Part shown: positions 100 through 51,757 of the stretch, in pieces | How positions within the stretch are numbered: the stretch's first letter is position 1 | Layout: every line of letters begins with the position of its first letter | DNA from: an uncultured Nitrososphaerota archaeon | GTDB taxonomy: Archaea; Korarchaeota; Korarchaeia; Korarchaeales; Korarchaeaceae | DNA length: 64,000 nt | Direction of reading: 5' to 3' | Assembly: GCA_964519515.1 (NCBI GenBank) | Contig: CAZFIJ010000042.1 | Coordinates: forward strand, 33 to 64,032 | Made by a program: the position numbers and the translations under genes | The notes under the pieces: generated by a model | Databases searched by the model: none | What the model was told of the DNA's origin: nothing | Seen by the model: only the letters and a program-made list of their open reading frames with translations

Positions 100-756
100 A
101 TGCGTATACTCAAATGTGAGAGGTGCGGGAGGATCATTGAGGAACATGTAGAGGGAAGGGGCCCTATCTTATGTTGTAATGACGAAATGAGAGTTCTAGT
201 CCCTAATGAATCCCCTGAGCTCCTGGAGGAGCATAGACCGAGGATCTACCACGAAGATGGGATCCTAGTGGAAATAGGATCGATACCCCATGAGATGAAT
301 GAGTCAAGTAGGATAATATGGGTCGAAATCATGAAGGGAGATGGCTCCAGGATCAGGAGATATCTAGAGGAAGGGAAGAGTCCTGAAGCCTCTTTCGGGG
401 AGATAGATGGAGATATTGAGATTAGGATCCTCTGCAGTAAACATGGCCTCTGGATCTTCGAGCATAAAACCGCGAAGCTTGACACAATGGAAGCAGTGAG
501 GAAAGCTGTTGAGAGATTCAACGAATTGAGGGGAAGGGAGTCCTCGGCTAGGATATTGGAGATATCGGGCGAGTCAATCATTGTGGAATTTACCGGCAAT
601 TTCTGCAGGACCTGTGGATTTTACGACTATTTTGAGGATCTCAGACTCCTCATGGAGGATTATAATGTAAGAACTTCGATAAGAGCCATTGAGGAATTTG
701 AGGATGGTTCTATAGTCACTTATTCGATAGAGAGGGATGGGGATGGGGGTGGATGA
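100..756 (+). CDS. desulfoferrodoxin/superoxide-reductase-like protein fused to a NifU-like C-terminal CxxC domain
   Basis: 218-aa ORF. The N-terminus MRILKCERCG...ILCCNDEM matches the CxxC...CC desulforedoxin-like domain. The central part carries SOR-like EEHRP, IPHEM and LCSKHGLW motifs. The C-terminal ~90 aa contain FTGNFCRTCG, as in NifU-type domains. Confidence 0.6.
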   Translation: MRILKCERCGRIIEEHVEGRGPILCCNDEMRVLVPNESPELLEEHRPRIYHEDGILVEIGSIPHEMNESSRIIWVEIMKGDGSRIRRYLEEGKSPEASFGEIDGDIEIRILCSKHGLWIFEHKTAKLDTMEAVRKAVERFNELRGRESSARILEISGESIIVEFTGNFCRTCGFYDYFEDLRLLMEDYNVRTSIRAIEEFEDGSIVTYSIERDGDGGG

Positions 757-2076: not shown

Positions 2077-3162
2077 ATGAGGTCGAATAGGAAGGTAGGG
2101 ATCATCGGATGGGGTGTCTACGTACCGAAGTGGAGGATAAGATCGGAGGAGCTCGCTAGAGGATGGGGAAGGGAATGGAAGCGATACGCAGCAGGTATAA
2201 TGGTTGAGGAGAAGAGCGTACCCGGATTGGATGAGGATACTCTCACTATAGCATACGAAGCGTCCTTGAATGCCCTGAGGAGGGCTAGGATAGATCCATC
2301 GAAGCTCAGGGCTGTATACGTTGGCACAGAGTCAAAGCCTTACGCTGTTAAAACTACAGCGACGATACTCGCAGAGGCTTTAGGCGCCGGAGGACCGAAA
2401 AGACTTACTACAGGCGCTGATTATGAGTTCGCATGTAAGGCAGGGACGGAAGCTATTCAATCGGTGATAGGGCTTGTAGGATCTGGGATGATAGATTATG
2501 GGCTAGCAGTAGGGGCTGATACCGCACAAGGGGCCCCTGGAGATGCCTTAGAATATACTGCATCAGCTGGAGGTGCAGCATACGTTTTGGGACCTGCTGA
2601 TGATTCTATAGCTATTATAGAAGCGTCCATATCTCATGTGACCGATACGCCGGATTTCTGGAGGAGGCAACATGAGCATTATCCAGCTCACACGAGAGCT
2701 TTCACAGGAGAGCCGGCTTACTTCAAGCACATAATATCAGCCGCGAGAGAGTTGATGAGCTTAATGGGGACTGGACCCAATGATTATGATTATGCTATAT
2801 TCCACCAACCCAATGGTAAGTTTCCACTGAGAGTAGGGGCTAGGTTGGGTTTCACACCTGACAAGATAAAACCTGGGCTCATAACTCCCTATATAGGCAA
2901 TACTTACTCTGGCTCAGCTCTGGTCGGTCTCGCTGCAGTTCTAGATCAAGCGAAGCCCGGGCAGAAGATACTCCTGGTCTCCTTCGGATCTGGTGCTGGC
3001 AGCGACGCCTTCCACATAGAGGTTCGCGATGGGATCGAGGCTGTCCAAGATCTCGCGCCTAAGACGATGGACTATGTCTCGAGGAAGGAATACATAGACT
3101 ACGCTATTTACGCTAGGTTCAGGAGGATGATAAAGATGTTACACGATTTCAGCGGGTACTGA
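2077..3162 (+). CDS. hydroxymethylglutaryl-CoA synthase
   Basis: 361 aa. Catalytic motifs GTESKPY (Glu), EFACKAGT (Cys), FHQPNGKFP (His) and GNTYSGS are present. It is the first gene of a three-gene abutting operon, downstream of a 200-nt AT-rich promoter region. Confidence 0.9.
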
Positions 3163-3163
3163 G

Positions 3164-4309
3164 GTGATGATCATGACATACATCATAGGTGCGGGTATTT
3201 TAAAGGTTGGAGATCATTGGGAGAAGTCATTGAGGAATTTAGCTGCTGAAGCATCAATATTGGCTATAGAAGACGCGGGAGGAGTTCCAGTAGATTATGT
3301 CGTGATAGCTAATTCCCTCTCAGGAGTGGTGAATGCTCAGGAGAACCTCGGATCTTATGTAGTATCACGGTTGAACCTTAAGGGAGTGCCCGCACTGAAA
3401 GTTGAGGCCGCTAATGCCTCTGGGGCTGCTGCCGCTATTGTAGCAAATTCATTGATAAAAAGCGGGGAAGCTCAGAGAGTTCTAGTCATTGGAGTTGAGA
3501 AGATGACGGATTATACATCTCTAGAGGATTCTAATGCCGCTCTATCGACGCTCATAGATTCTGAGTATGAGGCATTCCACGGGGCTACCCTTGACTCCCT
3601 ACATGCTCTACTAATGAGGGAATATTTAAGAAAATATCAGATAAATAGAGAAGATTTCTCCTATTTCCCGATCTTAATGCATGAAAATGCTACAGATACT
3701 CCGCATGCTCAATATAGATTCAAGATAGATCTCGACGCTTACATATCTTCCCCTCTAATAGCCGAACCGATAAGCATGATGGACGTTCCCAGCCCCTCTG
3801 ATGGCGCTGCTGCAATATTGCTTTCAGCGAAGAGTGAAGGCCCAAATGGAAGCGTTAAGATATCCTCATTCGGCCAGGCTACTGATAGAATATCTCTATA
3901 TGATAGGGAATCTGTCTTAGAGATGCCATCAATTAGGATGGCATTCAATAGAGCTGTCTCGAAGTTGAATAACTTCAAGCCCGATTTCTATATCATAGGG
4001 GAGTACTCGAGTGTGATGGGCTATATAGCTACGGAGGAGTTGGGTCTAGCTGAGAGGGGAAAGGCTTACAGGCTTTTCATGGATGGAGAGGCCAGAAGGA
4101 GCGGATCCGTCCCCATAAACCCAGAAGGTGGTTCTAAGGCGAGAGGAGATCCTATAGGAGCGACTGGGGTCTATCAGTTAGCTGAAGCTTACCTCCAGCT
4201 CACAGGAAGGGCTCAGGGATGGCAGGTCGATGGCGCTAGAAGGGCCCTCGTCCTCAGCATCGGTGGAGTGGGATGCAATTCCGTGGTCCATTTAGTTGAG
4301 GGGGTGTGA
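3164..4309 (+). CDS. thiolase-fold protein (acetyl-CoA acetyltransferase-like; catalytic fingerprint residues not conserved)
   Basis: 381 aa, colinear with archaeal/SCP2-type thiolases (WEKSLRNL, VIGVEKMTDY, DGAAAILL, GDPIGATGV). It reads EAANASG where the nucleophile Cys is expected, and GDP where GHP is expected. Confidence 0.8.
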   Translation: MMIMTYIIGAGILKVGDHWEKSLRNLAAEASILAIEDAGGVPVDYVVIANSLSGVVNAQENLGSYVVSRLNLKGVPALKVEAANASGAAAAIVANSLIKSGEAQRVLVIGVEKMTDYTSLEDSNAALSTLIDSEYEAFHGATLDSLHALLMREYLRKYQINREDFSYFPILMHENATDTPHAQYRFKIDLDAYISSPLIAEPISMMDVPSPSDGAAAILLSAKSEGPNGSVKISSFGQATDRISLYDRESVLEMPSIRMAFNRAVSKLNNFKPDFYIIGEYSSVMGYIATEELGLAERGKAYRLFMDGEARRSGSVPINPEGGSKARGDPIGATGVYQLAEAYLQLTGRAQGWQVDGARRALVLSIGGVGCNSVVHLVEGV

Positions 4310-4728
4310 GTATGTGGGCTTACTGGTTGAGTGTCCCCGCTCATTGGAGGGAATTGCCAGCTAGGTATAGGCTGGAAGGGGGCTTGTGTAGTAACTGCGG
4401 TCACACGATGTTTCCTAAGGGAGAAGTATGTCCTATCTGCGGATCTAAGGACATAGTTACCAAGCAACTCCCGAGGAGGGGAAAGGTGATCAGCTACTCT
4501 GTTATATGGAATGCTCCCAGAGGATATGAGTACTATACACCCTACATCGTGGCTCTAATTGAGCTGGAGGATGGAACTAAGTTGATGAGCCAGTTAACGG
4601 ACATCGAACCCTCCCAAGTGACTGAGGGTATGGAGGTCGAGATGGTACTCAGGAAAGTGAGGGTCAGCGGCGAGTCCGGGATAATTGCATATGCCTATAA
4701 ATTCAGGCCCCTACTGAAGAAGAAATGA
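4306..4728 (+). CDS. DUF35 zinc-ribbon/OB-fold protein (thiolase-HMGCS scaffold family)
   Basis: 140 aa. A four-Cys ribbon CSNCGHTMFPKGEVCPICGS is followed by an OB-fold-like region. The start overlaps the stop of the preceding gene. Confidence 0.85.
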   Translation: MSMWAYWLSVPAHWRELPARYRLEGGLCSNCGHTMFPKGEVCPICGSKDIVTKQLPRRGKVISYSVIWNAPRGYEYYTPYIVALIELEDGTKLMSQLTDIEPSQVTEGMEVEMVLRKVRVSGESGIIAYAYKFRPLLKKK

Positions 4729-6259: not shown

Positions 6260-8155
6260 TTGGAGGACGCCTTCTACAGGGATGTCGGATTGAAGGTGGG
6301 ACTAGAGATACATCAGAGGCTCGATTCTCATAAATTATTCTGCAACTGCCCTTCGACCCTGAGAGAAGAAGAGCCTCATTCCTGGGTAAGTAGGAACCTT
6401 AGTGTTTCTTATAGTGAGCTCGGGATGATAGATCCGGCGGCTAGATTCGAATCCTTAAGGAAGAGGAATTTCCTCTATGGGATATACTTCGATACGACAT
6501 GCGAGGTGGAGATAGATGAGGCCCCACCTCACCCCTTGAATGAGGATGCTCTCGAAATATCCATTCAAGTGGCCTTGATGCTGGGGATGAAACCCGTCGA
6601 TGAGATACATGTGATGAGGAAGATAGTAGTCGATGGTAGCAATACTACTGGTTTTCAGAGGACTGCTCTAGTTGCTTTAGGACATGAGAAAAGCTACATA
6701 GAGACTTCAAAGGGAAAAGTAAGATTAGAAACACTCTGTCTCGAGGAAGAATCCGCATATATCATTGAGAGCACACCAGAATTCGCTAAGTACAGACTAG
6801 ATAGGTTAGGAATACCCCTAGTTGAGATCTCCACTGCTCCAGATATATGGCACCCAGAGCAAGCGATGGAGGCTGCTTTGAAGATAGGGAGGATCCTCAG
6901 GGCAACTGGGAGAGTTCAGAGAGGTATCGGGACGATTAGACAGGACATAAACGTCTCTATAGAGGGAGGAGCCAGGCAAGAGATAAAGGGGATACAGGAG
7001 CTCGAGCTCATACCTGAGGTGATCAGAAGAGAGATCTTAAGGCAGCAGAACCTCTTGAAGATCCAGGAGGAATTGAGAAAACGCGGGATCAGCGAGGAAG
7101 ATATAGATGATCCGATATATGATATAACGGATGCCCTCTCTCAGACAGGATCTCAGCTGATCAAGAGATCCCTTTCCAAGGGAGAGAGGATCTTCGGGAT
7201 GAGAGTTAAAGGCTTCAGGGGATTGATTGGCAGGGAGATACAACCAGAGAGACGTTTTGGGACGGAGTTAGCTGATTACGCTAGAGTATTCGGTGGTGTC
7301 AAAGGTATACTGCACGGCGATGAATTACCAGGTTACGGTATAGGGGATGAGGAAGTAAGGAAGATCAGGGATATGCTCTCATGCGATGATGATGACTCCT
7401 TCATATTAGTTATAGGGGAGAAGTCATCCTCTACAATAGCTTTAGAGTCCGTCAGATCGAGGATCAGGTTCTCCATTAAGGGAATACCTAACGAGACTAG
7501 GAAGGCTTTGCCAGATGGGAACACCTCCTTCATGAGACCAATGCCCGGAGCAGCTAGGATGTATCCTGAGACAGACATACTTCCAGTTAAAACAGCTACG
7601 ATAATCAGTAAGATAAGAGAACTCCCAAAGATGCCTGAGGAGACTGTAAACGAGCTTATTAGGGAATATGGGATTAACAGCGAGCTTGCTTGGGATTTAT
7701 ATGATGAAGGCAAGATACCGCTCTTCAAGAAGCTCGTTAGCTACGGGGCCCCGGCGAGCTTCACAGCAGCCACACTGACATCGACGATGAGGATGCTCAG
7801 AAGGGAGGGGGAGAATATCGAGAGGATCGCTGAGGATCATCTAATCGAATTATTCAAATTTCTGGGAGAGGGGAGGCTTGCGAAGGAGGCTGTCCCCGAT
7901 ATACTGAGGGGAGTTGCGAGGGGCGATTACTCAAGTGTCCATGACTACTTGGAAGCATATTCGATGAATTTAGATGAGTTGGATTCTTTAATAGATTCAA
8001 TACTGGAGAGATTCAGGGATAAAGTATTGGAGAGGGGTGATAGGGCCTTCGGGATGCTCATGGGGGAGGTCATGAAGATCGCGAGGGGGAGGATAGATGG
8101 TGCTATTGTGAGCGAGAGGCTGAGAATTAAGCTAAAAGAATTTCTCAAGACTTGA
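6260..8155 (+). CDS. gatE: Glu-tRNA(Gln) amidotransferase subunit E
   Basis: 631 aa with a GatB/GatE-type N-terminus VGLEIHQRLDS..KLFCNC and a long C-terminal helical tail. A TTG start lies 4 nt after the gatD stop. Confidence 0.95.
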   Translation: MEDAFYRDVGLKVGLEIHQRLDSHKLFCNCPSTLREEEPHSWVSRNLSVSYSELGMIDPAARFESLRKRNFLYGIYFDTTCEVEIDEAPPHPLNEDALEISIQVALMLGMKPVDEIHVMRKIVVDGSNTTGFQRTALVALGHEKSYIETSKGKVRLETLCLEEESAYIIESTPEFAKYRLDRLGIPLVEISTAPDIWHPEQAMEAALKIGRILRATGRVQRGIGTIRQDINVSIEGGARQEIKGIQELELIPEVIRREILRQQNLLKIQEELRKRGISEEDIDDPIYDITDALSQTGSQLIKRSLSKGERIFGMRVKGFRGLIGREIQPERRFGTELADYARVFGGVKGILHGDELPGYGIGDEEVRKIRDMLSCDDDDSFILVIGEKSSSTIALESVRSRIRFSIKGIPNETRKALPDGNTSFMRPMPGAARMYPETDILPVKTATIISKIRELPKMPEETVNELIREYGINSELAWDLYDEGKIPLFKKLVSYGAPASFTAATLTSTMRMLRREGENIERIAEDHLIELFKFLGEGRLAKEAVPDILRGVARGDYSSVHDYLEAYSMNLDELDSLIDSILERFRDKVLERGDRAFGMLMGEVMKIARGRIDGAIVSERLRIKLKEFLKT

Positions 8156-10618
8156 CTCCTTCCTATCCTTTATGATCTCATCGAAATTCATGTCGAGAGC
8201 CCCTAATATTTGCTCGAATGTCGATCTCATTATCTCCACATACTTCTCCTTATCTATCTGCGACTTGCTAGCTAGTTCCACAGGCATCACTCCCTCCCTC
8301 CCGACGACCTTTACGTACTTAATCACTTGCCCTACCTCAACGCGTTTACCCATGCTCTCCAATATCCTAGCGACCTTGACGTGTTGAGGCGTGGTCTTAG
8401 TATAATCGTCGGGGCTCTTACCCAGCATGCACCTGAAAGCGAGCTTCTCCAAATCATAATCTCCGGACTCTAACATCTTAACGTAGCCTCTTATGGTCTC
8501 CTCTATCTTCATCTTCGCATTTGAGAAATCTTCCGGGCTTCTGACCTCTGATAAAGTTTTTATGACGTCATCGAATGCTTCTTTCACTAGAATAGGTATG
8601 TTTCTCTTCTTACCTAACAATCCCTTTATCACGACAGATCCATCTTTAGTTACTCCTAAGTAGTTCTTCTTCAATCTCGAGAAAACCACGTACCTGTACC
8701 ACTTATCGAGCTCCAGGTCTATTCCTAGCTTCTCTTCGACCCTCCTCTCGAACTCCTCTATCTGTTCTTGCGTCGCCCCCCTGATGAATAGACTATCTGT
8801 ATCCCCGTAGATGACCTTCAGATTCATCTTACGCGCCTCATCTATCGAGAGGAGCATCGCCTTCCTAGCGAGAGCTGTGATCATCTCAGCCGCGGGAGGG
8901 GAATAGAGAGGGAAGTTCTCATATCCAAATACTCCATAAGAAGCATTTAGGAAAACTTTGAGGCTCCTTTGAACGGCATCAAACCACTCCCTTTTATTTT
9001 CATCCTTCTCCTCCTTTGCTCTCCTCTTATACCTCTTGACCCTGAGATCCCTTAACGCTTGAATCAAGTATGGGACTATTCCCCTCTCCTTCTTACATAT
9101 CCAATGAGGGAGTTCATTGACTGGTCTGTTTTCCCTACAATCCTCATGAGGGCAGTTTATTGTCTCGAAACTGACTTTCCAACGTCCTATTATCGATGGA
9201 TATAGACTAGCGAAGTCCATCACTGCCACATCGAAGTGTATGCCAGGGACTGGCTCCAGAACTATGGCTCCCATGTACTTCTTCCCCTTTATGATCGCTT
9301 GAGAATATGTCCTCTCCCCTCTCACTTTCATTATCTCCTCTTTTTCAGGGATGAGCCAGCCCCTCCTCCTATATTCGAAGAATATCATATTCCTTATCCA
9401 TGACGATACCCCCTGCCTCGATACTTCCTCGAGCGACATCTTGCTTATCCTGGAGAATAGGAAGAGAAGCCTGATTATCTCTCCAGAACCTATATTTCCG
9501 AGCTTAAATGTGAGCTCAGCATCCTTGAGGCAATATTCTGCTAAAGTCATGGTCTCAATGGAGTAGAAATCTCTGGCTTCTAGTTCCATCTTCTTCTCGC
9601 CCAATATGGCTTCAGCTACTTCATCTAACGTGTAACCTGCATATTTATTGTCGAAAACGTAAACTTGTATTGATCTGTTGCTGAATAACTTGTAAAGATC
9701 TATGTGGATGCCCGTATCTAATATAGCTCTGTCCTTCTCGAGCCTCACTGGCCTATCGCTCACCCCCAGTTTCTCAGCCCTTTTAGCTAAGTACGGGAGA
9801 TCGAAGTTATCTCCATTATAAGTAAATAAGAGAGGATATTCACTTATTCTGTCCAATAAGCTCCTTATAAGCCTCCCCTCACTCTCATAGCTTATCAGTT
9901 TAGCACCGTTTGGTAACTCATCAGGGAGGCTCCCTCCTCTATGCAAAACATGAACCTCCTTTCTCCCTGAGCTATCTACTATTGCGGCAGCTGCAACCGG
10001 TTTGTCCGGTTCCCTTGGATCAGGTATCTTATCTAATGGAGATAGAACCTCTATATCGAGTGCTGCATTCGGCATGCTCGGAGAGGGTTCATCGAAGAGT
10101 GGGATCGTCGAGAGTAATATGTCCCTAACTTCACCATCAGAGTTAAGCAAATCCTCCTCTAGTTCAACTTCTATACTAATCCTCCTCGGATTTCCTGAAT
10201 CATCTACCTCATAGAGACATCCCGGTATTAGATTTCTATCAAAGATGAAACAATCATAATATTTTATTCTCGCCTCCCAGACATCGTATCCGAGCTTAGC
10301 TAATGTATCTCTCATGTTTTTGGGGGATCCCCCTATCGCAAGCGGGTCCTTAGCCTCAACTTTAGTTAACTCGACCTCCTTATCTCTGAGGATATCGTAT
10401 TTCCTGACTCTTGAGATCGAGTGAATCCTCGATGCGAACTCCGAGAGAGCTTCAGATATCCTCTCCTCAGGAGCATTAGTGAGGAGATATGGCTTATGTT
10501 CTGTTTCGTCTTTAACCAGAAATATCTCTCCGCTATCCGCATCATAGAACTTCATCACAGCAGCTCTATCATCTCCTGAGTAGAATACTGAGAGTAGGAC
10601 TCCTCTTCTCGGGGGCAT
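8132..10618 (-). CDS. polB: family B DNA polymerase with intact exonuclease and polymerase motifs
   Basis: Exo I LDIEV, Exo II YNGDNFDLPYL, Exo III EYCLKDAEL, Pol A MDFASLYPSII, Pol B KVFLNASYGVFG and Pol C VIYGDTDSLF are all present. The ORF is open to 10660, but the ATG at 10618 sits ~28 nt from a TATA-like element, so I place the start there. Confidence 0.9.
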   Translation of the reverse strand: MPPRRGVLLSVFYSGDDRAAVMKFYDADSGEIFLVKDETEHKPYLLTNAPEERISEALSEFASRIHSISRVRKYDILRDKEVELTKVEAKDPLAIGGSPKNMRDTLAKLGYDVWEARIKYYDCFIFDRNLIPGCLYEVDDSGNPRRISIEVELEEDLLNSDGEVRDILLSTIPLFDEPSPSMPNAALDIEVLSPLDKIPDPREPDKPVAAAAIVDSSGRKEVHVLHRGGSLPDELPNGAKLISYESEGRLIRSLLDRISEYPLLFTYNGDNFDLPYLAKRAEKLGVSDRPVRLEKDRAILDTGIHIDLYKLFSNRSIQVYVFDNKYAGYTLDEVAEAILGEKKMELEARDFYSIETMTLAEYCLKDAELTFKLGNIGSGEIIRLLFLFSRISKMSLEEVSRQGVSSWIRNMIFFEYRRRGWLIPEKEEIMKVRGERTYSQAIIKGKKYMGAIVLEPVPGIHFDVAVMDFASLYPSIIGRWKVSFETINCPHEDCRENRPVNELPHWICKKERGIVPYLIQALRDLRVKRYKRRAKEEKDENKREWFDAVQRSLKVFLNASYGVFGYENFPLYSPPAAEMITALARKAMLLSIDEARKMNLKVIYGDTDSLFIRGATQEQIEEFERRVEEKLGIDLELDKWYRYVVFSRLKKNYLGVTKDGSVVIKGLLGKKRNIPILVKEAFDDVIKTLSEVRSPEDFSNAKMKIEETIRGYVKMLESGDYDLEKLAFRCMLGKSPDDYTKTTPQHVKVARILESMGKRVEVGQVIKYVKVVGREGVMPVELASKSQIDKEKYVEIMRSTFEQILGALDMNFDEIIKDRKESSLEKFF

Positions 10619-10641
10619 CCATAATCTAATACGGGAGGGAG

Positions 10642-10650
10642 AATTTAAAT
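10642..10650. promoter_or_regulatory. palindromic TATA-like element (AATTTAAAT) shared by divergent polB and the 10688 gene
   Basis: This is the only A/T element between the two divergent genes. It lies ~28 nt from the polB ATG (10618) and ~42 nt from the ATG at 10688. Confidence 0.4.
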
Positions 10651-10687
10651 AAGGTGTCACTAGGGGTTGCGAAAGAGGTGTTCACCA

Positions 10688-11659
10688 ATGAGGTACAAGC
10701 TATTCGCGGTAGCTATGCTCACGTTTATGCTAGCTAGCCAGATGAGAATAGTAGATTCAGCGTATCCAATGCCAATAGCGACCATCCAGATAAGGGAGGA
10801 TTTCTCAGCTACGATGAAGGCGAGCGTATATAGAACGTTGAGTGGTGATGAAACGCTCTTCTTCACAAACACCTTGAAGGCACCTATCCTATATTGGATG
10901 AACTTCAGAGGGAATATCACGATGAATCAAACACCTGCTGGGCTTAGAGGAGATTATAGATTCTTATTTTACCCTCAAGTCGGGGATCCAGAGAATAGAG
11001 CGGACTTCCTCAGGAAAGCTGTCGCCAGAGGCTACATCTCAAATTCGACGATATTGAACATGATGAGCTTCCTCTATGGGAGAAACTTGTTAATTTTATA
11101 CGGACTTAGATGGAATCTCTTCAATGTAACTTATAGAGGAGTTCCCGAAGTTAACTATACTGGTATAGCTGCGATATCATCAGCTTCCTCGGACTCGAGC
11201 GTGATAAAGAGCTTATGGGTCTCATATAAGAGCGAGACCCTTGAAACTCAAACAGTAGTCATAAGTTATGAGATATATGCCGAGACCAAACCTCTGACAC
11301 TCAAGAAGAGTGCTAGTGGCGATTATTATGTGATGGATCTGAGCCCCCTCACCTACTTACTACCTGACGACATAGCTTGCAACCTCTGGGTCAACTTCAC
11401 GAATCCATCTATACAGATAATGGGGGGCAATTTAGCACCTAAAGTGATCGTCTGGAACAACGCACTCTGGGAGTTCGTTCCCCAGCTTCAAAAGGATGGG
11501 AAGTCCCTTACAATAATAGTTAAACGCTCTGAGATTTACGTTACACCTCAACTGGTTCTCTTGGCTTCATTACCCCCAATCGTAGTAGGAGCATATATCT
11601 TCTGGAGGATGAGGGGAGAATTCTTGAGAACTGAAGGGAGATCTAAGGAAAAAAGTTAA
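10688..11659 (+). CDS. secreted/membrane-anchored glycoprotein, unknown function
   Basis: It has a signal-peptide-like N-terminus MRYKLFAVAMLTFMLASQ, multiple N-x-S/T sequons, and a C-terminal TM helix LLASLPPIVVGAYIFW followed by a basic tail. The ORF is open from 10667. Confidence 0.5.
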   Translation: MRYKLFAVAMLTFMLASQMRIVDSAYPMPIATIQIREDFSATMKASVYRTLSGDETLFFTNTLKAPILYWMNFRGNITMNQTPAGLRGDYRFLFYPQVGDPENRADFLRKAVARGYISNSTILNMMSFLYGRNLLILYGLRWNLFNVTYRGVPEVNYTGIAAISSASSDSSVIKSLWVSYKSETLETQTVVISYEIYAETKPLTLKKSASGDYYVMDLSPLTYLLPDDIACNLWVNFTNPSIQIMGGNLAPKVIVWNNALWEFVPQLQKDGKSLTIIVKRSEIYVTPQLVLLASLPPIVVGAYIFWRMRGEFLRTEGRSKEKS

Positions 11660-24916: not shown

Positions 24917-27100
24917 TCAGAACCATTCCTCTAACCCACCCTTCTTACTCTCCTGAACCTTTAGAGGGGAGAGAGTCCTCTCAATAACTTGGTCGAACAA
25001 GCTCAAGTAATAATCCAAATCTGCATCACTCACGTCAAAGAATTCTGCCGGTCTGGCTCTTTCTGTCACGCTCCCAGGTCCTTTAACTATTATTACCCTC
25101 AGGACCTGGCCCCTATGGACCTCTATCCCCTTCTCCGCTTTCAGCCATGTCGAGACCCTGAGGCCCTTCGTCATCCTCTCAAATCTTTCCTCTTCCTTTC
25201 CGATAGTCTCAAATATTATTAGATCTTCCCTCTTGATGTCCCCCCTTATTATTTTATCTCTGAATTTATTTACTATTTTTTCAATTTCGCTCTCCTTCCC
25301 CTTGAGGATAGCCTCAACGACCTCCCTCTGAGCCTCTTTGATTATCTTAGGATAATCCCTCCTTATGAACTCAAATCCCTTGACAATAATCCTTCCGTCC
25401 TCTAGTAAATGTGCATACTTTTTCTTCGCCAAATAAATTCCTTTTAATGCCTTATAACGGAGATCCAGCCTGAGTGGTATCTCCGAATTTATATCATCGA
25501 TTACGTCCTCACACTCCTTTCCGATGAATTGAATACCATCTGTATCTATGTAAATCACGCTTAAACCCTTAGATTCCAGCATCTCCCTGACCTTCTTTAT
25601 GTAGAGCCTTCCGTAGGCTGATGTCAGCCTAGCTGCAGATATATTCATGAATATAGCACTCTCCCAACCCATATACCCATAGATCGCATTAGTAACTACC
25701 TTTATTGCTCTTTGAGCTGCTTCCAGTCTCTTATACTCAGGGTCATCCGGTTTCAAATTCATGAGGCTTTCCTTAATCTTCGATCTTTCCTCTATCAACT
25801 TCCTCACCAATTGGGGGACGAGGCCCTCCCTATCTCTGCATACCTTAGCTCTCACTCCCTCCACATTCACCTCCTCTACTTCATCGCAGAGACCTTCCTC
25901 AGGATTGACTGTCTCGAAGCTCAAATTGTGTAGAGCCATTATAGAAGGGTACATGCTAGCGAAATCCAGATAACAGATGTCTTCATAAATCCCTGGAGAT
26001 CTTATCCAAACGAATCCTCCCTCATAACTCTCTTCGAGTCTTTGAGGCGATGAGAAAGCGATCCAATCCCTTGATCTCGACTCCCTGAGGAGTATCGCCT
26101 CTACTATCTCCCCGACAGAACTCCTGAGCAGTTTGTGGATAGGGACCAGCGACATCTTAGATAGAGCGACCTGATTATCGATTATTTTCGAGTATATTCC
26201 AATTATTGTACTTAATTTCTTCCTCATATAGTCTAGGACATTGTCCCTATTCAGCTTCCAAGCTTCAGCCACTCTGAACTTCATCATGACCTCTGGTCTA
26301 TCGACCCCGAGCTCGTCAGCTAATTCGTACCAAGTCCTCTCAGGGAGTTGGGGGAAATCCCTCCAAGCCACTGAGAAGAGATCTAGATTGGCCCTCCCTC
26401 TGATCCTGTTCTCCACTATGATAGTACCTCTGAAGAACTTACCGGTCTCCATAGGTTCAGATCCATCCCTCCCAATCGAGAATCTGAGCCCGAGGTGTTT
26501 AGAACGGGCCATCATGTGCTTGAATTCATCAGCATCTTGACCATAACCTACTATTACATCCGGATTCTCCTTATTTATCACTGAGGCAAATTCCCTTATG
26601 ACGGAGGAATCGTCTAAATCGTTTGTTGATATCACCTCAATGGGGCCATCATCCACGGAATAAGAAATAGCGACTATCGGGCTTTTTCCCTCAACAGGAA
26701 ATCCATCTTCGCTGTATATCATCCCGGAGAAGAAGAACTTCTTCAGATCCTCAATACCATAGCTCTCGCTCGGATTATCTGGATCGCTGAATGGGATCAA
26801 TCCGCTATCCAAGATGAACTTAAACCAGGATGGTATTCCCGTCTCCATCGGATTTTTCAACCCCTTCATCGCTTTTTTCATCGATCTCTCGTCCTTAAAA
26901 TAGACCTTCACTAGATCCCTCTCTACCCCCATCACTTTCTTCCTCACTCGTTCCTTCTCCAAGAAACCGCTCAGATTTCCCTCCTCTTCAGGTAGAATAT
27001 AGAAATAAGGCCTAAATTTTACCCTCTCACTCATTCCACCTGAGAACCAGAGCTCCAATTGATCCTCCATATCCTCTATGTGAAAGTATATTTTACGCAT
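24917..27100 (-). CDS. family B DNA polymerase paralogue with degenerate 3'-5' exonuclease motifs
   Basis: 727 aa. Pol A YLDFASMYPSIM, Pol B KVVTNAIYGYMG and Pol C VIYIDTDGIQF are present. The Exo I (IVAISYSVDD) and Exo II (GYGQDADEFKHM) positions lack the acidic and NxxxFD residues. Confidence 0.85.
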   Translation of the reverse strand: MRKIYFHIEDMEDQLELWFSGGMSERVKFRPYFYILPEEEGNLSGFLEKERVRKKVMGVERDLVKVYFKDERSMKKAMKGLKNPMETGIPSWFKFILDSGLIPFSDPDNPSESYGIEDLKKFFFSGMIYSEDGFPVEGKSPIVAISYSVDDGPIEVISTNDLDDSSVIREFASVINKENPDVIVGYGQDADEFKHMMARSKHLGLRFSIGRDGSEPMETGKFFRGTIIVENRIRGRANLDLFSVAWRDFPQLPERTWYELADELGVDRPEVMMKFRVAEAWKLNRDNVLDYMRKKLSTIIGIYSKIIDNQVALSKMSLVPIHKLLRSSVGEIVEAILLRESRSRDWIAFSSPQRLEESYEGGFVWIRSPGIYEDICYLDFASMYPSIMALHNLSFETVNPEEGLCDEVEEVNVEGVRAKVCRDREGLVPQLVRKLIEERSKIKESLMNLKPDDPEYKRLEAAQRAIKVVTNAIYGYMGWESAIFMNISAARLTSAYGRLYIKKVREMLESKGLSVIYIDTDGIQFIGKECEDVIDDINSEIPLRLDLRYKALKGIYLAKKKYAHLLEDGRIIVKGFEFIRRDYPKIIKEAQREVVEAILKGKESEIEKIVNKFRDKIIRGDIKREDLIIFETIGKEEERFERMTKGLRVSTWLKAEKGIEVHRGQVLRVIIVKGPGSVTERARPAEFFDVSDADLDYYLSLFDQVIERTLSPLKVQESKKGGLEEWF

Positions 27101-32664: not shown

Positions 32665-32727
32665 TATGAGGGCCTTAATTACGACAATCATCGTAAAATG
32701 ATAATGATAGGACGAGATATGGAGAGC

Positions 32728-35139
32728 ATGATGAGGAAACTGTTGCCCCTGCTATTGATACTGCTGCTGTATAGCCAAGCTCGGATCTCAGCCGATGGTA
32801 TAAGGTATGGAGGAGATGCTATAGTCCTCATGGGGAGTGGCCCTGAATCCATCAGTAAGCTTTGTTCAGTGAGGCTCCTAAGTTTCATCAGCCCTAACGA
32901 GACCTCACCACTCATCGTTCAGAATAGTACTTTCAATAGAGTGGCATTCAACGGGACTCATTTGAGTTTCGTTTTAGAAAGGAACTCTACAGTTATCGCG
33001 AGCAAGGATTACGGAGTATCCTTTCTTCCCCCATTTCTGATCAGAGTTGAGAATGGGAAAATCGTTGAGGTCAATTACCTGAGCGATAAGGCTAGCTTCG
33101 GGAACTTCGAGTTGATTGAGGCGAAGAAAGGACAGAGCGCGAGGATATCCATAGATGGTGAGATAATCGAGGGATCGTGGATTCCGGAGTTCGAGGGATG
33201 GTTGCTCCGCAGGGAATGGAGTGCTCACATGGAACCATCTTACCTGCTTCTCTTCAACAACGGGACCTATGTCGCTTTCGGAGGAATAACTAAATCTTAT
33301 ACAAATTTCGTTACCCTAGAAAATATTAACCCCCAGTATTCGAGAGCTGAATTGTCACTCTTGAATAACTCCGCTTTCCTCAGGGCCTTTGGACCCTCTA
33401 TTAAGGTTAGGAAGGTCGATGCCGTAGGGCTGGAGGAAGGCCTCTTCGTATATGGCCGCGATAACATGTCCCTAATTGAAGTTAAATGCTCCGGCCCAGC
33501 AAACTTCAAGATAATAGACCCAAAATATTGTAATATTTGTGAATTTAATGGAAATGAATTTTACTTTGACTCCAACTTCAGTATTGCGCTCAATATAGAT
33601 TCACCGAGTGAGGTGATGAGCGGAAGCTCATTTCAAATCCTCGTGACTCCCCCTCAAGGATCAAGGGAAATCTCTATAGTTTTCGGGGATTCCTCGATCG
33701 TCCTGAGGAACATCAGCATACCGATGAGGGTTGAGATTAGAGCTCCTACAACTGAAAGAGAAGTTATGAATGACTTATTCATTACTGTAACGACAAACGA
33801 TGGTATCTTCGGATTAAGGAGGGGGATAAAGATACTGTCAACGTATACGGCACACCTCCTGAATTCGACTGAAGTTTACCTCTTAGGCGGGAGGGGATCT
33901 ATCTCTATAAAGGTTTATAACTTTGGTGACCTATACTCACAAATTTCTAGCGTTAGAATGGATTTATTAGGAAGTAAATCTGAAAAAATTCCGCTTAATT
34001 TTCCAATTTATTATCAAATACCTCCTAAATCATCCGTCACGATAAGCCTCCCCTTGGACATCCCGACCGGAGAGTACCTCGGGAGCATCCAGCTGAACTT
34101 AAGTGACTCAGTGAATAGGAGTTACTCCCTATCTCTGCAGAGTATCAGGATAATTTCGACCTCAGAGACTCCATTATCGATCTTAACACTCATATCTCCG
34201 GAGATCCCGAATGTCGGGGATGATGTCAGGCTCTCCCTCAGTTTGAGCTCCGCGATCCCATTGGAGAAGCTACTAGTGAACGTCAGCTCAGCGGGAATGG
34301 ACCCCATTTCGGATACCTCCAAGTTCCTGCTGAACATAAGCAAGGAGGAAGTTGTAAGATTGGAGTTCTCCTTCAGGGCTAAAAGTGTGGGACCATCTCA
34401 GATATTGATATCAGCCTATTACCTACCTAAGGGCTATTCAACCTATAGGACCGCGGTTAAGGAGGTTAAGATACCTATCGGTAATGTGGAGGGGATCGTC
34501 TACGCAGAGGTCAATGAGACGAACGTGAGAGTAGGTGAGAGCGTCGAATTGAAGGTAAGGGTTGAGGGTGTGAGCGGTGAAGTTACGATAGATTTTCCCA
34601 GAGGTACCTCTATAATCGAATCACAAGGAGCTGTGAGAGGAAATAAGGTGAGCGTATTGGCTCCAGCTGATGTGAGGATCGTATTGAGCTTCAACACAAC
34701 CGGTAATTTCACTTTACCCAGTTTCGCGATATTCAATGGGACCAGAGCCCTACCCATTAATGCTGTGCATGTGAACGTAGTGGGGGGATCGATGAATGAG
34801 AAGGAGAGATCCCTAAGAGCGAAGTTAGCTGAGCTCAATAGGAGGTATAAGACCTTAACTGAGGCATCTAGCAGCCTAGAATCTTCTGATCGTGAGCTCC
34901 TCGATAAAGTCAGCAGTTTATTGAGAGAAAGCGAGAATTTGATCAATAAGGGTATTTATTCTGATGCTGAGAAATCGCTGAGAGAAGCTGAGAATATCCT
35001 TTCAAGCTTAGAAGAGAGAGCTTATGGTTATATGAGTAGTCTAATCAACTTTCTGATGTATTTCATAATAGGAGCCGGCTTCTCGTCCCTCCTACTCATC
35101 TATAGAAGGCTGAGGAAGAGGCGTGCAGTTTGGAAGTAG
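32728..35139 (+). CDS. large secreted, C-terminally anchored glycoprotein (possible S-layer/cell-surface protein)
   Basis: ~800 aa. Signal peptide MMRKLLPLLLILLLYSQA, more than a dozen N-x-S/T sequons, beta-rich repeats, a C-terminal coiled-coil segment, then TM helix FLMYFIIGAGFSSLLLIY and a basic tail. The ORF is open from 32698. Confidence 0.6.
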   Translation: MMRKLLPLLLILLLYSQARISADGIRYGGDAIVLMGSGPESISKLCSVRLLSFISPNETSPLIVQNSTFNRVAFNGTHLSFVLERNSTVIASKDYGVSFLPPFLIRVENGKIVEVNYLSDKASFGNFELIEAKKGQSARISIDGEIIEGSWIPEFEGWLLRREWSAHMEPSYLLLFNNGTYVAFGGITKSYTNFVTLENINPQYSRAELSLLNNSAFLRAFGPSIKVRKVDAVGLEEGLFVYGRDNMSLIEVKCSGPANFKIIDPKYCNICEFNGNEFYFDSNFSIALNIDSPSEVMSGSSFQILVTPPQGSREISIVFGDSSIVLRNISIPMRVEIRAPTTEREVMNDLFITVTTNDGIFGLRRGIKILSTYTAHLLNSTEVYLLGGRGSISIKVYNFGDLYSQISSVRMDLLGSKSEKIPLNFPIYYQIPPKSSVTISLPLDIPTGEYLGSIQLNLSDSVNRSYSLSLQSIRIISTSETPLSILTLISPEIPNVGDDVRLSLSLSSAIPLEKLLVNVSSAGMDPISDTSKFLLNISKEEVVRLEFSFRAKSVGPSQILISAYYLPKGYSTYRTAVKEVKIPIGNVEGIVYAEVNETNVRVGESVELKVRVEGVSGEVTIDFPRGTSIIESQGAVRGNKVSVLAPADVRIVLSFNTTGNFTLPSFAIFNGTRALPINAVHVNVVGGSMNEKERSLRAKLAELNRRYKTLTEASSSLESSDRELLDKVSSLLRESENLINKGIYSDAEKSLREAENILSSLEERAYGYMSSLINFLMYFIIGAGFSSLLLIYRRLRKRRAVWK

Positions 35140-36176
35140 AGAGCTGGGCTAAGAGAGCTGCAATCACTATAGAGGAGTCCCTTAAGAATAGTGAAAAGAT
35201 CGCGATAATACTACCGCCAACGCCCGACGGGATATCTTCCTCCGTGATACTCTCTGAATTATGCTCCCAGCTTGGTGTTGACTCTGAATTCGTTGTCTCC
35301 CTTCCAGAGACATTCCTAGATGTGATCGAGCACTTAATAGGGAAGTTCGATCACTTGATCTTTTTGGAACTCCCGCCTCATGGTCCCGGGCCTATCTCCA
35401 TCGCAAAGGAACTATTCAAGAGGTTAATTGCCATCGATCATGGATCTTCGGATCTACCGCAAGATGTCCTCAGGGTGAGATTTGACTATGGGGGTATTTG
35501 CACTAGCCTCTTGCTCTACATGATCTCCTCACAGATCGGGAGAGATAATGAGTACCTCTCATGGATAGCGGTATCTGGCTTTAGGAATAAGTGCACTTCT
35601 AAGATATGCGAATCCGTTAAAGAGAGATCTCAGCTTTACTGGCCCGACTTAGTTGAAGAGGCAAGTATAGATCTCATCCAGAGGATGCTGTTAGCGGCAT
35701 CTTTCGAGGGGGAGGAGTGGATAATGATGGCTATCTCCTCCCTTCAGGAGTCGGCGGAAGATCCTTGGTGGTTTATAAGAGGAAGCTCTGTAACTGCGAG
35801 CTTATTGAGGTCGAAGGTACCTGAAGTCGAGGCTAAGGTCAGAGACTCCTTAAGCGAGCCCTTCCTCCTCGATGGTTCGGTTGGCATCTGGGAAGTCGAT
35901 GAGCCTCATCAAAGATTTGTGCTCTCAATAGAGGCCAGGAGATTCGTAGATGTAGCGATGACATTCTTCTATGATCCCCCACTCGGCCTCGTTTATATCT
36001 CAGCCCCGCATTATATCGACTTATACTCTGAGGCCATTGGATTACTCAGGGGGGAGTCGGAATGGTCGGCTTTCGGGGGAAGGGGTTTCCTGTCGATGAT
36101 ATTAGACTCCGAAAGGATGATTTCTGTGCTCATGAGTTTCAAGGATAGGTTAAATGGTATATTGGGAAGGGCCTGA
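35130..36176 (+). CDS. DHH/DHHA1-superfamily (RecJ/Cdc45-like) protein with degenerate catalytic motifs
   Basis: 348 aa. Motif I-like IAIILPPTPDGISSSVIL, motif III-like LIAIDHGSS (DHG instead of DHH), and DHHA1-like AFGGRGFLS (GGRG instead of GGGH). The TTG start overlaps the upstream stop. Confidence 0.45.
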   Translation: MEVESWAKRAAITIEESLKNSEKIAIILPPTPDGISSSVILSELCSQLGVDSEFVVSLPETFLDVIEHLIGKFDHLIFLELPPHGPGPISIAKELFKRLIAIDHGSSDLPQDVLRVRFDYGGICTSLLLYMISSQIGRDNEYLSWIAVSGFRNKCTSKICESVKERSQLYWPDLVEEASIDLIQRMLLAASFEGEEWIMMAISSLQESAEDPWWFIRGSSVTASLLRSKVPEVEAKVRDSLSEPFLLDGSVGIWEVDEPHQRFVLSIEARRFVDVAMTFFYDPPLGLVYISAPHYIDLYSEAIGLLRGESEWSAFGGRGFLSMILDSERMISVLMSFKDRLNGILGRA

Positions 36177-47498: not shown

Positions 47499-48266
47499 AT
47501 GGGATGGATGAAAATTATAGAATTGTCAAAGCCTCTAGGCGCTGAGATAGCGATAATCGGATTCCCAGGAGTAGCTAATGTTGGGGAACAGGTGATAACA
47601 TATTTGGTGAGGGAGAAGAACGCGATACCTATAGCGAGGATATACTCGGAGTACCTAGTCTTCCCGAACAACATGGTCGGCATCTCCGTGACAGAAGACG
47701 GCAAGTTCCTCCTACCCTCAGTATCGATATTCCAGTTGAGGGACCCTCCCCTCATACTAGTGACCAGCGATGTACAACCTCTAGCTTGGGGCGCTATGGA
47801 AATAGCGAATGAAGTCATGAGGATCCTCTCGGGCCTAGGCGTCAAGAGGATAATAGTGATAACGGGTTTCGTTGAGGAGAGTGCTGCTGGTAAAGTCATC
47901 GCCTTTGGAACGGATAATGAACTTTTAAATGTATTTTTAAAGGCTAATACCGTAAAAGAAGATCTGATAAAGGTCGTAGTTGGTCTAGCTGGTTCCGTTC
48001 TTGGGATGGCTAAGATAAGGGGGATTAAGAGTCTAGTGCTGAGTGGTGTATCTCCGGACTACTCTCCAGATCCTAGAGCTGCTAAAAGCGTCTTATTATC
48101 CCTAGACTCAGTTTTCTCATTAGGTTTGGACTTCGAGTCGCTCGATAGGCAGATAGAGGAGATAGATAGGATAAAGAGTGAGATACTGAAGGAAATCGAG
48201 AGGAGGTTGAGGGAGGAACAAGGATTCCAGGGTGAGGAAGTTGGCTCAGCGGAGTACGTCGGCTAG
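47499..48266 (+). CDS. PAC2-family protein (proteasome assembly chaperone PbaA/PbaB-like), copy 1
   Basis: 255 aa. IIGFPGVANVGEQV N-terminus, a C-terminal charged helical tail, ending ...SAEYVG. Confidence 0.65.
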   Translation: MGWMKIIELSKPLGAEIAIIGFPGVANVGEQVITYLVREKNAIPIARIYSEYLVFPNNMVGISVTEDGKFLLPSVSIFQLRDPPLILVTSDVQPLAWGAMEIANEVMRILSGLGVKRIIVITGFVEESAAGKVIAFGTDNELLNVFLKANTVKEDLIKVVVGLAGSVLGMAKIRGIKSLVLSGVSPDYSPDPRAAKSVLLSLDSVFSLGLDFESLDRQIEEIDRIKSEILKEIERRLREEQGFQGEEVGSAEYVG

Positions 48267-51001: not shown

Positions 51002-51757
51002 TTGGGATACATTGAGTTGATTAAGCTGAAGGATGTGAGGCCTAGAAATCCCGTTTTGGTGCAGGGAGTTCCTGGGCTTGGCCTAGTCGGTAAAATAGCA
51101 GCAAACTATCTGATAGAATCCTTAGAGTCCGAGAAGATAGCTGTCATATATAGTGATTACCTGCCCTTGCCCGATGGATCCTCAGGCGTTAGGATTGAGG
51201 AGGAGGATATCGTACCTCCAAGTTACGATCTTTATTTAGCTAAAGGAGATAACTTGGATCTCATAATTCTAACTTCAGAGGTCCAACCAACTATTTTCGG
51301 CCAGTATGAGATAGGAGAGCTTGTTTTGGATTACGCAATTCAGTTAGGCGTTAAAATAGTCATAACGATGGGGGGATACGTCCCCGGTTCCCCTGAGGTT
51401 AAAGGCGTATTCGCTTGCTCGAATGATGAGGAGTTCATGAGGAGGCTCAACGAAGTCGGAGTTAAGCCGCTGACCGGAGGTTATGTGACTGGTGCTGCCG
51501 GTCTCTTAGTGGGGCTAGCGGATCTCAAGGGTTTAACGAGCGCTTGCCTCTTGGGAACGACAAATGGGGCATTTCCGGATCCAAAGGCATCTAAAATGGT
51601 GCTAGAAGCCCTTTCAAAGCTTTTCAAATTCGGGATAGATTTAGAAAAGTTGGAAAGGGAAGCTGAAATAGCTGCCGAAGTGATGAAAGAGGAAGTGAAG
51701 CTCCCTGAGACTGAAGTTTATAAGGAGGAAGAGAAAGGACTCCCGTATCACGGCTGA
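51002..51757 (+). CDS. PAC2-family protein (proteasome assembly chaperone PbaA/PbaB-like), copy 2
   Basis: 251 aa. VQGVPGLGLVGKIA N-terminus, a C-terminal charged helical tail, ending ...GLPYHG. TTG start. Confidence 0.65.
   Translation: MGYIELIKLKDVRPRNPVLVQGVPGLGLVGKIAANYLIESLESEKIAVIYSDYLPLPDGSSGVRIEEEDIVPPSYDLYLAKGDNLDLIILTSEVQPTIFGQYEIGELVLDYAIQLGVKIVITMGGYVPGSPEVKGVFACSNDEEFMRRLNEVGVKPLTGGYVTGAAGLLVGLADLKGLTSACLLGTTNGAFPDPKASKMVLEALSKLFKFGIDLEKLEREAEIAAEVMKEEVKLPETEVYKEEEKGLPYHG

Follow-up and report, generated by a model that had tools for sequence, protein, structure and literature searches.

How does an archaeon begin the synthesis of its membrane lipids when the thiolase of its mevalonate-entry operon has no catalytic residues left? 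A complex of thiolase, HMG-CoA synthase (HMGCS) and a DUF35 protein is the accepted entry to archaeal isoprenoid lipid synthesis, the rationale being that acetoacetyl-CoA from the unfavorable thiolase reaction is channeled straight to HMGCS. The question is raised by a 64-kb stretch of DNA from an uncultured korarchaeal archaeon (contig CAZFIJ010000042.1; the whole stretch is hereafter the window), whose proteins have their closest named database matches in Candidatus Korarchaeum sp. Three genes follow one another there on the forward strand: a catalytically intact HMGCS gene (2077..3162), a thiolase-fold gene for 378 amino acids (3173..4309), and a gene for a 138-residue DUF35 protein with a four-Cys zinc ribbon and an OB fold (4312..4728). 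The thiolase-fold gene lacks all thiolase catalytic residues, and we propose that it encodes a non-catalytic subunit.

The register on which this claim depends was set in two ways, by phmmer (hidden Markov model, HMM) alignments to three relatives of solved structure and by a separate 342-sequence alignment. With phmmer, 7yvy (the thiolase of P. furiosus) matched at E = 7e-75, 6esq_A (the thiolase subunit in the complex of M. thermolithotrophicus) at E = 2.5e-60, and 4yzo (ST0096 of S. tokodaii) at E = 1e-54. In both alignment sets the nucleophile Cys is aligned with Asn, the His-Asp of the HDxF motif with Gly-Glu, the GHP His with Asp, and the Asn of xNxGG with Ser; the same motif positions are 91–100% conserved among 258 catalytic-type relatives. 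On the forward strand, the Asn codon AAT lies at 3413..3415 within EAANASG (3404-3424), GEYS replaces HDxF at 3998..4009 within IIGEYSS (3992-4012), the Asp codon GAT replaces the GHP His at 4148..4150 within RGDPIGATG (4142-4168), and the loop Ser is at 4256..4258 within LSIGGVGC (4253-4276). A preliminary description of the window, made from its letters, had given these four motif readings, and on rechecking the nucleotide positions all of them are exact; its claim that the Cys, HDCF, GHP and C-terminal motifs are all substituted agrees with the three HMM alignments and with the 342-sequence alignment.

Two artifacts that the same description named as possible objections, a Cys/His/His(Asn) set in another register and an AAT codon due to sequencing or assembly error, are both ruled out. 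The only Cys of the protein, residue 368 (378-residue form), lacks conservation even inside the genus, and Cys is missing altogether from 25 of the 36 members of the Cys-less clade, so that no alternative register is available. Eight contigs, from ENA, Logan and JGI assemblies that are independent of one another, encode an identical 378-residue protein, and the AAT codon is therefore genuine. The product had been described as a thiolase relative of 381 residues; the relationship stands, and the start does not. The GTG at 3164 falls within a Shine-Dalgarno sequence, GAGGTGAT, that precedes the ATG at 3173, and since all gene calls in relatives agree on that ATG as well, we take it as the true start.

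Membership of the thiolase fold is clear from structure prediction. The AlphaFold (AF2) model of the thiolase-like protein has a predicted local distance difference test (pLDDT) score of 92.2 and a predicted template modeling (pTM) score of 0.93, and Foldseek aligned it with 6esq_A at a template modeling (TM) score of 0.94 (E = 1.7e-39) and with 7yvy_A at 0.90; given the match to 6esq_A, the protein is a well-folded member of the complex-thiolase structural family. Pfam Thiolase_N and Thiolase_C_1 both match. It falls under every NCBIfam thiolase cut-off, scoring 325 against 420 for PRK06064, a thiolase subfamily model, and 268 against 600 for NF053570, the M. thermolithotrophicus-type equivalog, while canonical Korarchaeota thiolases score 429–437 with PRK06064. 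Judged as an archaeal SCP2-type thiolase, it has the fold and the adjacency to HMGCS and DUF35 genes, and it lacks the Cys, the HDxF His, the GHP His and a score above the model cut-off. Database entries name it “acetyl-CoA C-acetyltransferase” or “thiolase family protein.”

A check on orthologs that the preliminary description had proposed found the Asn shared within the Korarchaeum genus (11 distinct sequences), with Gly (or Glu) at the Cys site in the remaining Cys-less Korarchaeia. Basal Korarchaeota (L015, L019, L088, L089), in which IorAB precedes the operon, retain the Cys, HDAF, GHP and the loop Asn within the same synteny. Among the early Cys-less loci, one group (L013, L172, P0029-31) has Gly at the Cys site, HDSS, GHP and a loop Ser, and another (L014, P0033) has Gly, HD(N/S)S, GYP and Ser. 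Loci at a middle stage (L007, L010-12, P0011-28) combine Gly (Glu in P0015) with HDYS, GNP and Ser, and the Korarchaeum genus (window, L001-L009, P0001-9) combines Asn with (G/S/E)EYS, GDP and Ser. Subfamily-model scores drop stage by stage over this series, from 437 in canonical proteins to 391, 362 and finally 325 (cut-off 420). Neighbor joining unites the Cys-less proteins in a single clade (bootstrap 93), with the clade of canonical Korarchaeota as its sister (bootstrap 94). On this sequence evidence, the Cys loss is old and clade-wide, a single event at the base of the Korarchaeia clade after which change was stepwise, and the Korarchaeum protein is an orthologous descendant of the canonical Korarchaeota operon thiolase.

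The key sites also vary within the clade: the nucleophile position holds Asn, Gly or Glu, the HDxF His position His, Gly, Ser or Glu, and the GHP His position His, Asn, Asp or Tyr. Such differences from one sub-lineage to the next imply that constraint was lost at these sites, rather than that a catalytic set was redesigned. Locus L173 records a second, recent loss, with Cys changed to His and AF to DP in its thiolase; it is collinear with L088 at 75–77% nucleotide identity, and a 2.4 kb IorAB segment has been swapped for ~285 nt. We also observed that, in the Korarchaeota-type loci examined, a Cys-bearing thiolase always lies directly downstream of IorAB (L015, L019, L088, L089, L016, L018, L090, L092, L093) and a Cys-less copy never does (window, L001-L014, L172, L173). 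The basal locus L089 in addition carries an HMG-CoA reductase (HMGR) gene at 7596-8804, between the DUF35 gene and gatD, giving an IorAB-HMGCS-thiolase-DUF35-HMGR cluster.

The thiolase-like gene is under strong purifying selection. Its ratio of nonsynonymous to synonymous substitution rates (dN/dS) is 0.049 for the window against L001 and again 0.049 for L007 against L011, compared with 0.037 for a canonical Korarchaeota thiolase pair and 0.013–0.033 for HMGCS, and dozens of genomes spanning ~50% divergence preserve an uninterrupted reading frame. Conserved sites were defined as those at least 85% identical in the 258 relatives with Cys/His/His (n = 96), and 68 of them are retained across the 36 Cys-less proteins. 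The 28 that are lost take in every catalytic motif position (C81, H276, D277, A278, F279, H326, N362), along with G46, M48, A125, A127, F140, N144, E274 and 13 others. Some replacements are fixed, or nearly so, in the Cys-less clade: N144H and F279S in 36/36 proteins, A125S and N362S in 35/36, and A278Y in 30/36. Of the three operon proteins, the thiolase-like (THL) one evolves fastest, with a THL/HMGCS distance ratio of 2.5 in the Cys-less clade vs. 1.25–1.3 in the canonical set, which is saturated and makes for a weak test.

Its partners look functional, as the preliminary description had supposed. HMGCS keeps the E-C-H-N tetrad (Glu85, Cys120, His243, Asn275), passes the NCBIfam equivalogs NF003274 (570.9 bits, cut-off 244) and TIGR00748 (543.9, cut-off 353), and matches 6esq_I (E = 3.5e-134) with every tetrad residue aligned. 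All 68 HMGCS genes examined have the tetrad, 34 of them beside a Cys-less partner, and HMGCS identity across genera is 83–89%. A 3-residue insertion, GPK (residues 106-108; 2392..2400, forward strand), is specific to the HMGCS of Cys-less Korarchaeia: it occurs in 15/15 of their loci, and 33/34 HMGCS genes paired with a Cys thiolase lack it. All Cys-less Korarchaeia also have P93T, which is likewise missing from nearly all HMGCS genes with a Cys-thiolase partner and like the insertion falls between Glu85 and Cys120; the two changes may represent co-adaptation. The DUF35 protein matches Pfam zf-ChsH2 and OB_ChsH2_C, and 6esq_E (E = 2.6e-28) with its four Cys aligned. Its ATG (4312) lies 3 nt past the thiolase-like stop codon, and the start and stop spacing in the HMGCS/thiolase-like/DUF35 operon suggests translational coupling. 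Beyond the DUF35 gene come gatD, gatE and, on the reverse strand, a gene for a family-B DNA polymerase, and the order HMGCS-THL-DUF35-GatD-GatE-PolB is kept across Korarchaeia in many Korarchaeota assemblies.

Why, then, should a dead thiolase be kept? Published work on the archaeal complex describes a CoA-binding site fused at the interface of HMG-CoA synthase (HMGS) and acetyl-CoA acetyltransferase (ACAT), with DUF35 joining both enzymes; by itself HMGS has no activity, and ACAT on its own is insoluble (PMC12960953; PMC12329534). The exchange H284A in the HDxF motif abolishes HMG-CoA formation (PMC12960953). Because HMGS is inactive alone and shares its CoA site with the thiolase subunit, we consider it probable that the pseudo-thiolase has been kept as the structural and CoA-binding partner of HMGCS, with acetoacetyl-CoA supplied from outside the complex, and this is the most economical reading of the locus. 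The subunit would be folded and stably expressed, and would neither form an acyl-enzyme nor carry out a Claisen condensation; it would have been retained since HMGCS cannot work without a thiolase-fold partner. Free acetoacetyl-CoA would reach the complex from another source, be it a separate thiolase (such as the IorAB-linked one of a sister lineage, below) or some other acyl-CoA pathway. Variable replacements at catalytic sites, and purifying selection alongside an intact HMGCS, are what a pseudoenzyme subunit should display. Of the two branches offered in the preliminary description, a non-catalytic scaffold or different chemistry, the scaffold is thus the one favored: the key sites drift, purifying selection acts strongly on the remaining protein, the operon and HMGCS, and HMGCS needs its partners (PMC12960953).

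A source of acetoacetyl-CoA was sought in the window and beyond it. In the 64-kb window, tblastn with five thiolases returned the known gene only, IorAB was looked for and is absent, and Pfam matches to 30 further open reading frames (ORFs) included no acyl-CoA metabolism genes except one 2-oxoacid:ferredoxin oxidoreductase. CAZGKA01, a metagenome-assembled genome (MAG) from a sister lineage, contains a Cys-less operon copy (L014) and, on another contig, a canonical thiolase (L018) directly downstream of IorAB with no HMGCS beside it. Further stand-alone IorAB-thiolase(-DUF35) loci are L016, L090, L092 and L093; L018 and L016 have no adjoining DUF35 gene, and L090, L092 and L093 each have their own. 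Searches seeded with canonical paralogs (the L018 protein and P0126) returned only a handful of relatives.

Several points weigh against retention of the subunit as a partner fed from outside. The evidence for a physical HMGCS/thiolase-like/DUF35 complex in this organism consists of the start and stop spacing and homology to 6ESQ. L014 and L018 are tied together by metagenomic binning only. Among the top 120 protein matches, a set that would miss more distant thiolases, no close canonical paralog came from the two crown-group contigs with the Cys-less gene, of 1.63 Mb and 1.30 Mb (scans of genome and metagenome contigs gave at least 599 and 600 stretches). Since the paralog-seeded searches gave none on these contigs, the ancestral canonical paralog appears to be absent from the Korarchaeum genus; a more distant thiolase may nevertheless be encoded in Korarchaeum genomes. 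The suggestion in the preliminary description that the real thiolase lies elsewhere accordingly gains a canonical, IorAB-linked paralog in one sister-lineage MAG, and finds no close relative of it for this genus. The acceleration relative to HMGCS is modest, as one close canonical pair gives a ratio of 2.1 vs. 2.5. Finally, the clade-fixed His144, Ser279, Ser125 and Ser362, and mostly Tyr278, sit at changed motif or pocket-candidate positions, so that a redesigned site is conceivable; these residues could be either inherited packing changes or parts of a new site.

If they do form a new site, the protein would be a neofunctionalized enzyme, carrying out thiol-independent chemistry at mevalonate entry through His144, Ser279, Asp/Glu277 and mostly Tyr278, for example aldol, retro-aldol or decarboxylative chemistry or a non-covalent Claisen condensation. 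We regard this as unlikely, although the new residues are fixed in a clade otherwise ~50% diverged, purifying selection is equal in strength to that on catalytic orthologs, and the paralog-seeded searches detected no other thiolase for the genus. The three positions used by thiolase-like or ketosynthase (KS)-like chemistry vary freely within the clade, position 278 is Ser or Asn rather than Tyr in early-branching Cys-less members, and the fixed residues may be mere packing changes. Precedents do exist in repurposed HMGS/ACAT/DUF35 complexes and in the steroid aldolases Ltp2-ChsH2(DUF35) and Sal-Shy(DUF35), which likewise pair a Cys-less thiolase fold with a DUF35 partner. The model aligns with Ltp2/Sal-type proteins at TM 0.83 and 22% identity. 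Their aldolase motif is Y-D-(H/C)-(F/Y), with the catalytic Tyr first (PMC12329534); the window has Gly at position 1, where clade members have His, Ser or Glu. The second catalytic residue is Tyr344 in Ltp2 and Cys304, at motif position 3, in Sal; position 3 is Tyr in 30/36 clade members and Ser or Asn in early branches. The Korarchaeum DUF35 is a free protein of 138 residues, not fused to a MaoC hydratase, and there is no steroid-degradation context. An Ltp2-type aldolase, the analogy drawn in the preliminary description, was rejected on both counts: the catalytic Tyr of YDHF is replaced by Gly (His in relatives), and DUF35 is free-standing rather than hydratase-fused. A decarboxylase of the KSQ/chain-length-factor type was also rejected, because Asn is confined to the Korarchaeum genus (Gly or Glu elsewhere) and both His are lost.

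Inactive thiolase-fold subunits that are obligate partners of active ones are known in the KS chain-length factor (CLF) and PqsB. Those pair within the heterodimer of one enzyme; in the Korarchaeum operon the intact partner is a different enzyme, HMGCS, bridged by DUF35. In the manner of KS-CLF or PqsBC, the thiolase-like protein could also pair with a separate catalytic thiolase as the inactive half of a heterodimer, with channeling into HMGCS preserved. Thiolases are obligate dimers, a canonical copy (L018) occurs in the same MAG as L014, and L018 and L016 have no DUF35 gene of their own alongside; in the paralog-seeded searches, however, no canonical paralog was detected for the Korarchaeum genus or for the “Gly” genera, and the stand-alone L090, L092 and L093 do have their own DUF35 gene. 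We judge such a heterodimer improbable. It is more doubtful still that HMGCS, with its KAS III-like Cys/His/Asn and Glu, performs both condensations, for example with malonyl-CoA, while the thiolase-like protein contributes a CoA site only. The clade-specific insertion and P93T between the catalytic Glu and Cys would fit, as would the failure of the paralog-seeded searches to detect another thiolase; the idea is purely inferential, though, the tetrad and overall sequence of HMGCS are unchanged, and we know of no precedent. Least credible of all is a decaying remnant or artifact, whether a pseudogene in a lipid scavenger or an error of sequencing or alignment. That the thiolase-like protein evolves faster than HMGCS and DUF35 could be taken in its favor, but a dN/dS of ~0.05 with frames intact in dozens of genomes effectively refutes a pseudogene, HMGCS is very strongly constrained, and the identical protein on independent contigs and the common register of three HMM alignments and the TM 0.94 model speak against an error. 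A broader possibility, to which we give only a small chance, is that the Korarchaeia clade, and possibly Thermoplasmatales, Acidilobales and some Bathyarchaeia, would make the lipid C4 precursor without a thiolase acyl-enzyme, through either a new thiol-independent activity of the subunit or an HMGCS that does both condensations.

Comparison with characterized systems places the retained pseudo-thiolase more exactly. The thiolases of the M. thermolithotrophicus complex (6ESQ/6ET9) and P. furiosus PFC_04095 (7YVY) share its fold (TM 0.94 and 0.90) and its gene order with HMGCS and DUF35; unlike them, the Korarchaeum protein has lost the Cys nucleophile, the His-Asp pair of HDxF, the His of GHP and the Asn of the loop. 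S. tokodaii ST0096 (4YZO), an archaeal SCP2-type relative (E = 1e-54, TM 0.86), is also Cys-less, with Ser aligned, but unlike the Korarchaeum protein it keeps HD and GHP; we found no functional study of ST0096/4YZO in the searchable literature. In bacteria, PhlACB, MucABC and the P. fluorescens ACAT/HMGS-DUF35 system have the same three-part architecture and retain one dead thiolase-fold subunit, which is on the HMGS side: PhlA, MucA and the P. fluorescens HMGS domain (PMC12960953). Dead subunits are thus known in the HMGS/ACAT/DUF35 architecture, but in the opposite partner. The Korarchaeum operon is the mirror image, as its HMGCS is intact and its ACAT-like subunit dead, and it belongs to the primary lipid metabolism of an archaeon. 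Given this symmetry with the dead-HMGS bacterial complexes, it would follow, if the Korarchaeum case is confirmed, that either partner of the architecture can turn pseudoenzyme.

The preliminary description had not seen that the feature is clade-wide and stepwise, nor that it recurs in several other archaeal lineages. An intact HMGCS tetrad adjoins a Cys-less thiolase-like gene in 34 of 68 cases (15 are Korarchaeia loci, including some duplicates), a count that gives no estimate of prevalence because the loci were gathered by similarity to the query and form a biased sample. The Cys site holds Glu in Acidilobus (L021/L022), Caldisphaera (L047/L059/L064) and Hestiella, Asp in several Thermoproteota/Nitrososphaerota MAGs and one Anaerolineae (Chloroflexi) MAG, Gln or Ser in Bathyarchaeia, and His or Gly in other MAGs. 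Picrophilus (L091) has Thr there, next to an HMGCS of 58% identity with its tetrad intact. Besides L091, L021/L022 and L047/L059/L064, the non-korarchaeal loci with a Cys-less copy between an intact HMGCS and DUF35 are L027, L024, L050, L055, L044, L051, L062, L032, L039, L071, L057 and L070. Most of the non-korarchaeal copies keep HD and GHP, so they may differ in function from the fully stripped Korarchaeum protein.

Other features of the window were noted in passing. The reverse strand carries two genes for family-B DNA polymerases (8132-10660 and 24917-27100), separated by 14 kb, and the second encodes 727 residues with only a weak exonuclease-domain match above the Pfam cut-off. None of three forward-strand ORFs, at 32698-35139, 35130-36176 and 10667-11659 (813, 348 and 330 residues), matches Pfam at E ≤ 1e-5; the first and second share 10 nt and may be a pair. 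Two forward-strand PAC2-family (proteasome assembly chaperone-like) genes, 3 kb apart at 47499-48266 and 51002-51757, flank a DUF354 gene and a reverse-strand pyridine nucleotide-disulfide oxidoreductase gene. At 100-756 (forward strand) is a gene for a 218-residue protein with N-terminal CxxC pairs and more Cys motifs in its C-terminal half, whose orthologs in related contigs have weak desulfoferrodoxin Pfam matches.

In the searchable literature, a scope that leaves many subscription papers outside, we found neither a description of a catalytically stripped thiolase in an archaeal HMGCS operon nor any account of thiolase biology in Korarchaeum. A korarchaeal clade keeps the genes of the complex while its thiolase subunit is without catalytic residues, and the situation is similar in the cultured genera Picrophilus, Acidilobus and Caldisphaera. 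If the proposed role is correct, channeling would be dispensable in the Cys-less lineages, and the first step of their membrane-lipid synthesis would have to come from elsewhere. The acetyl-CoA acetyltransferase label that these proteins carry in databases would then be wrong, and metabolic reconstructions that build on it would be affected.

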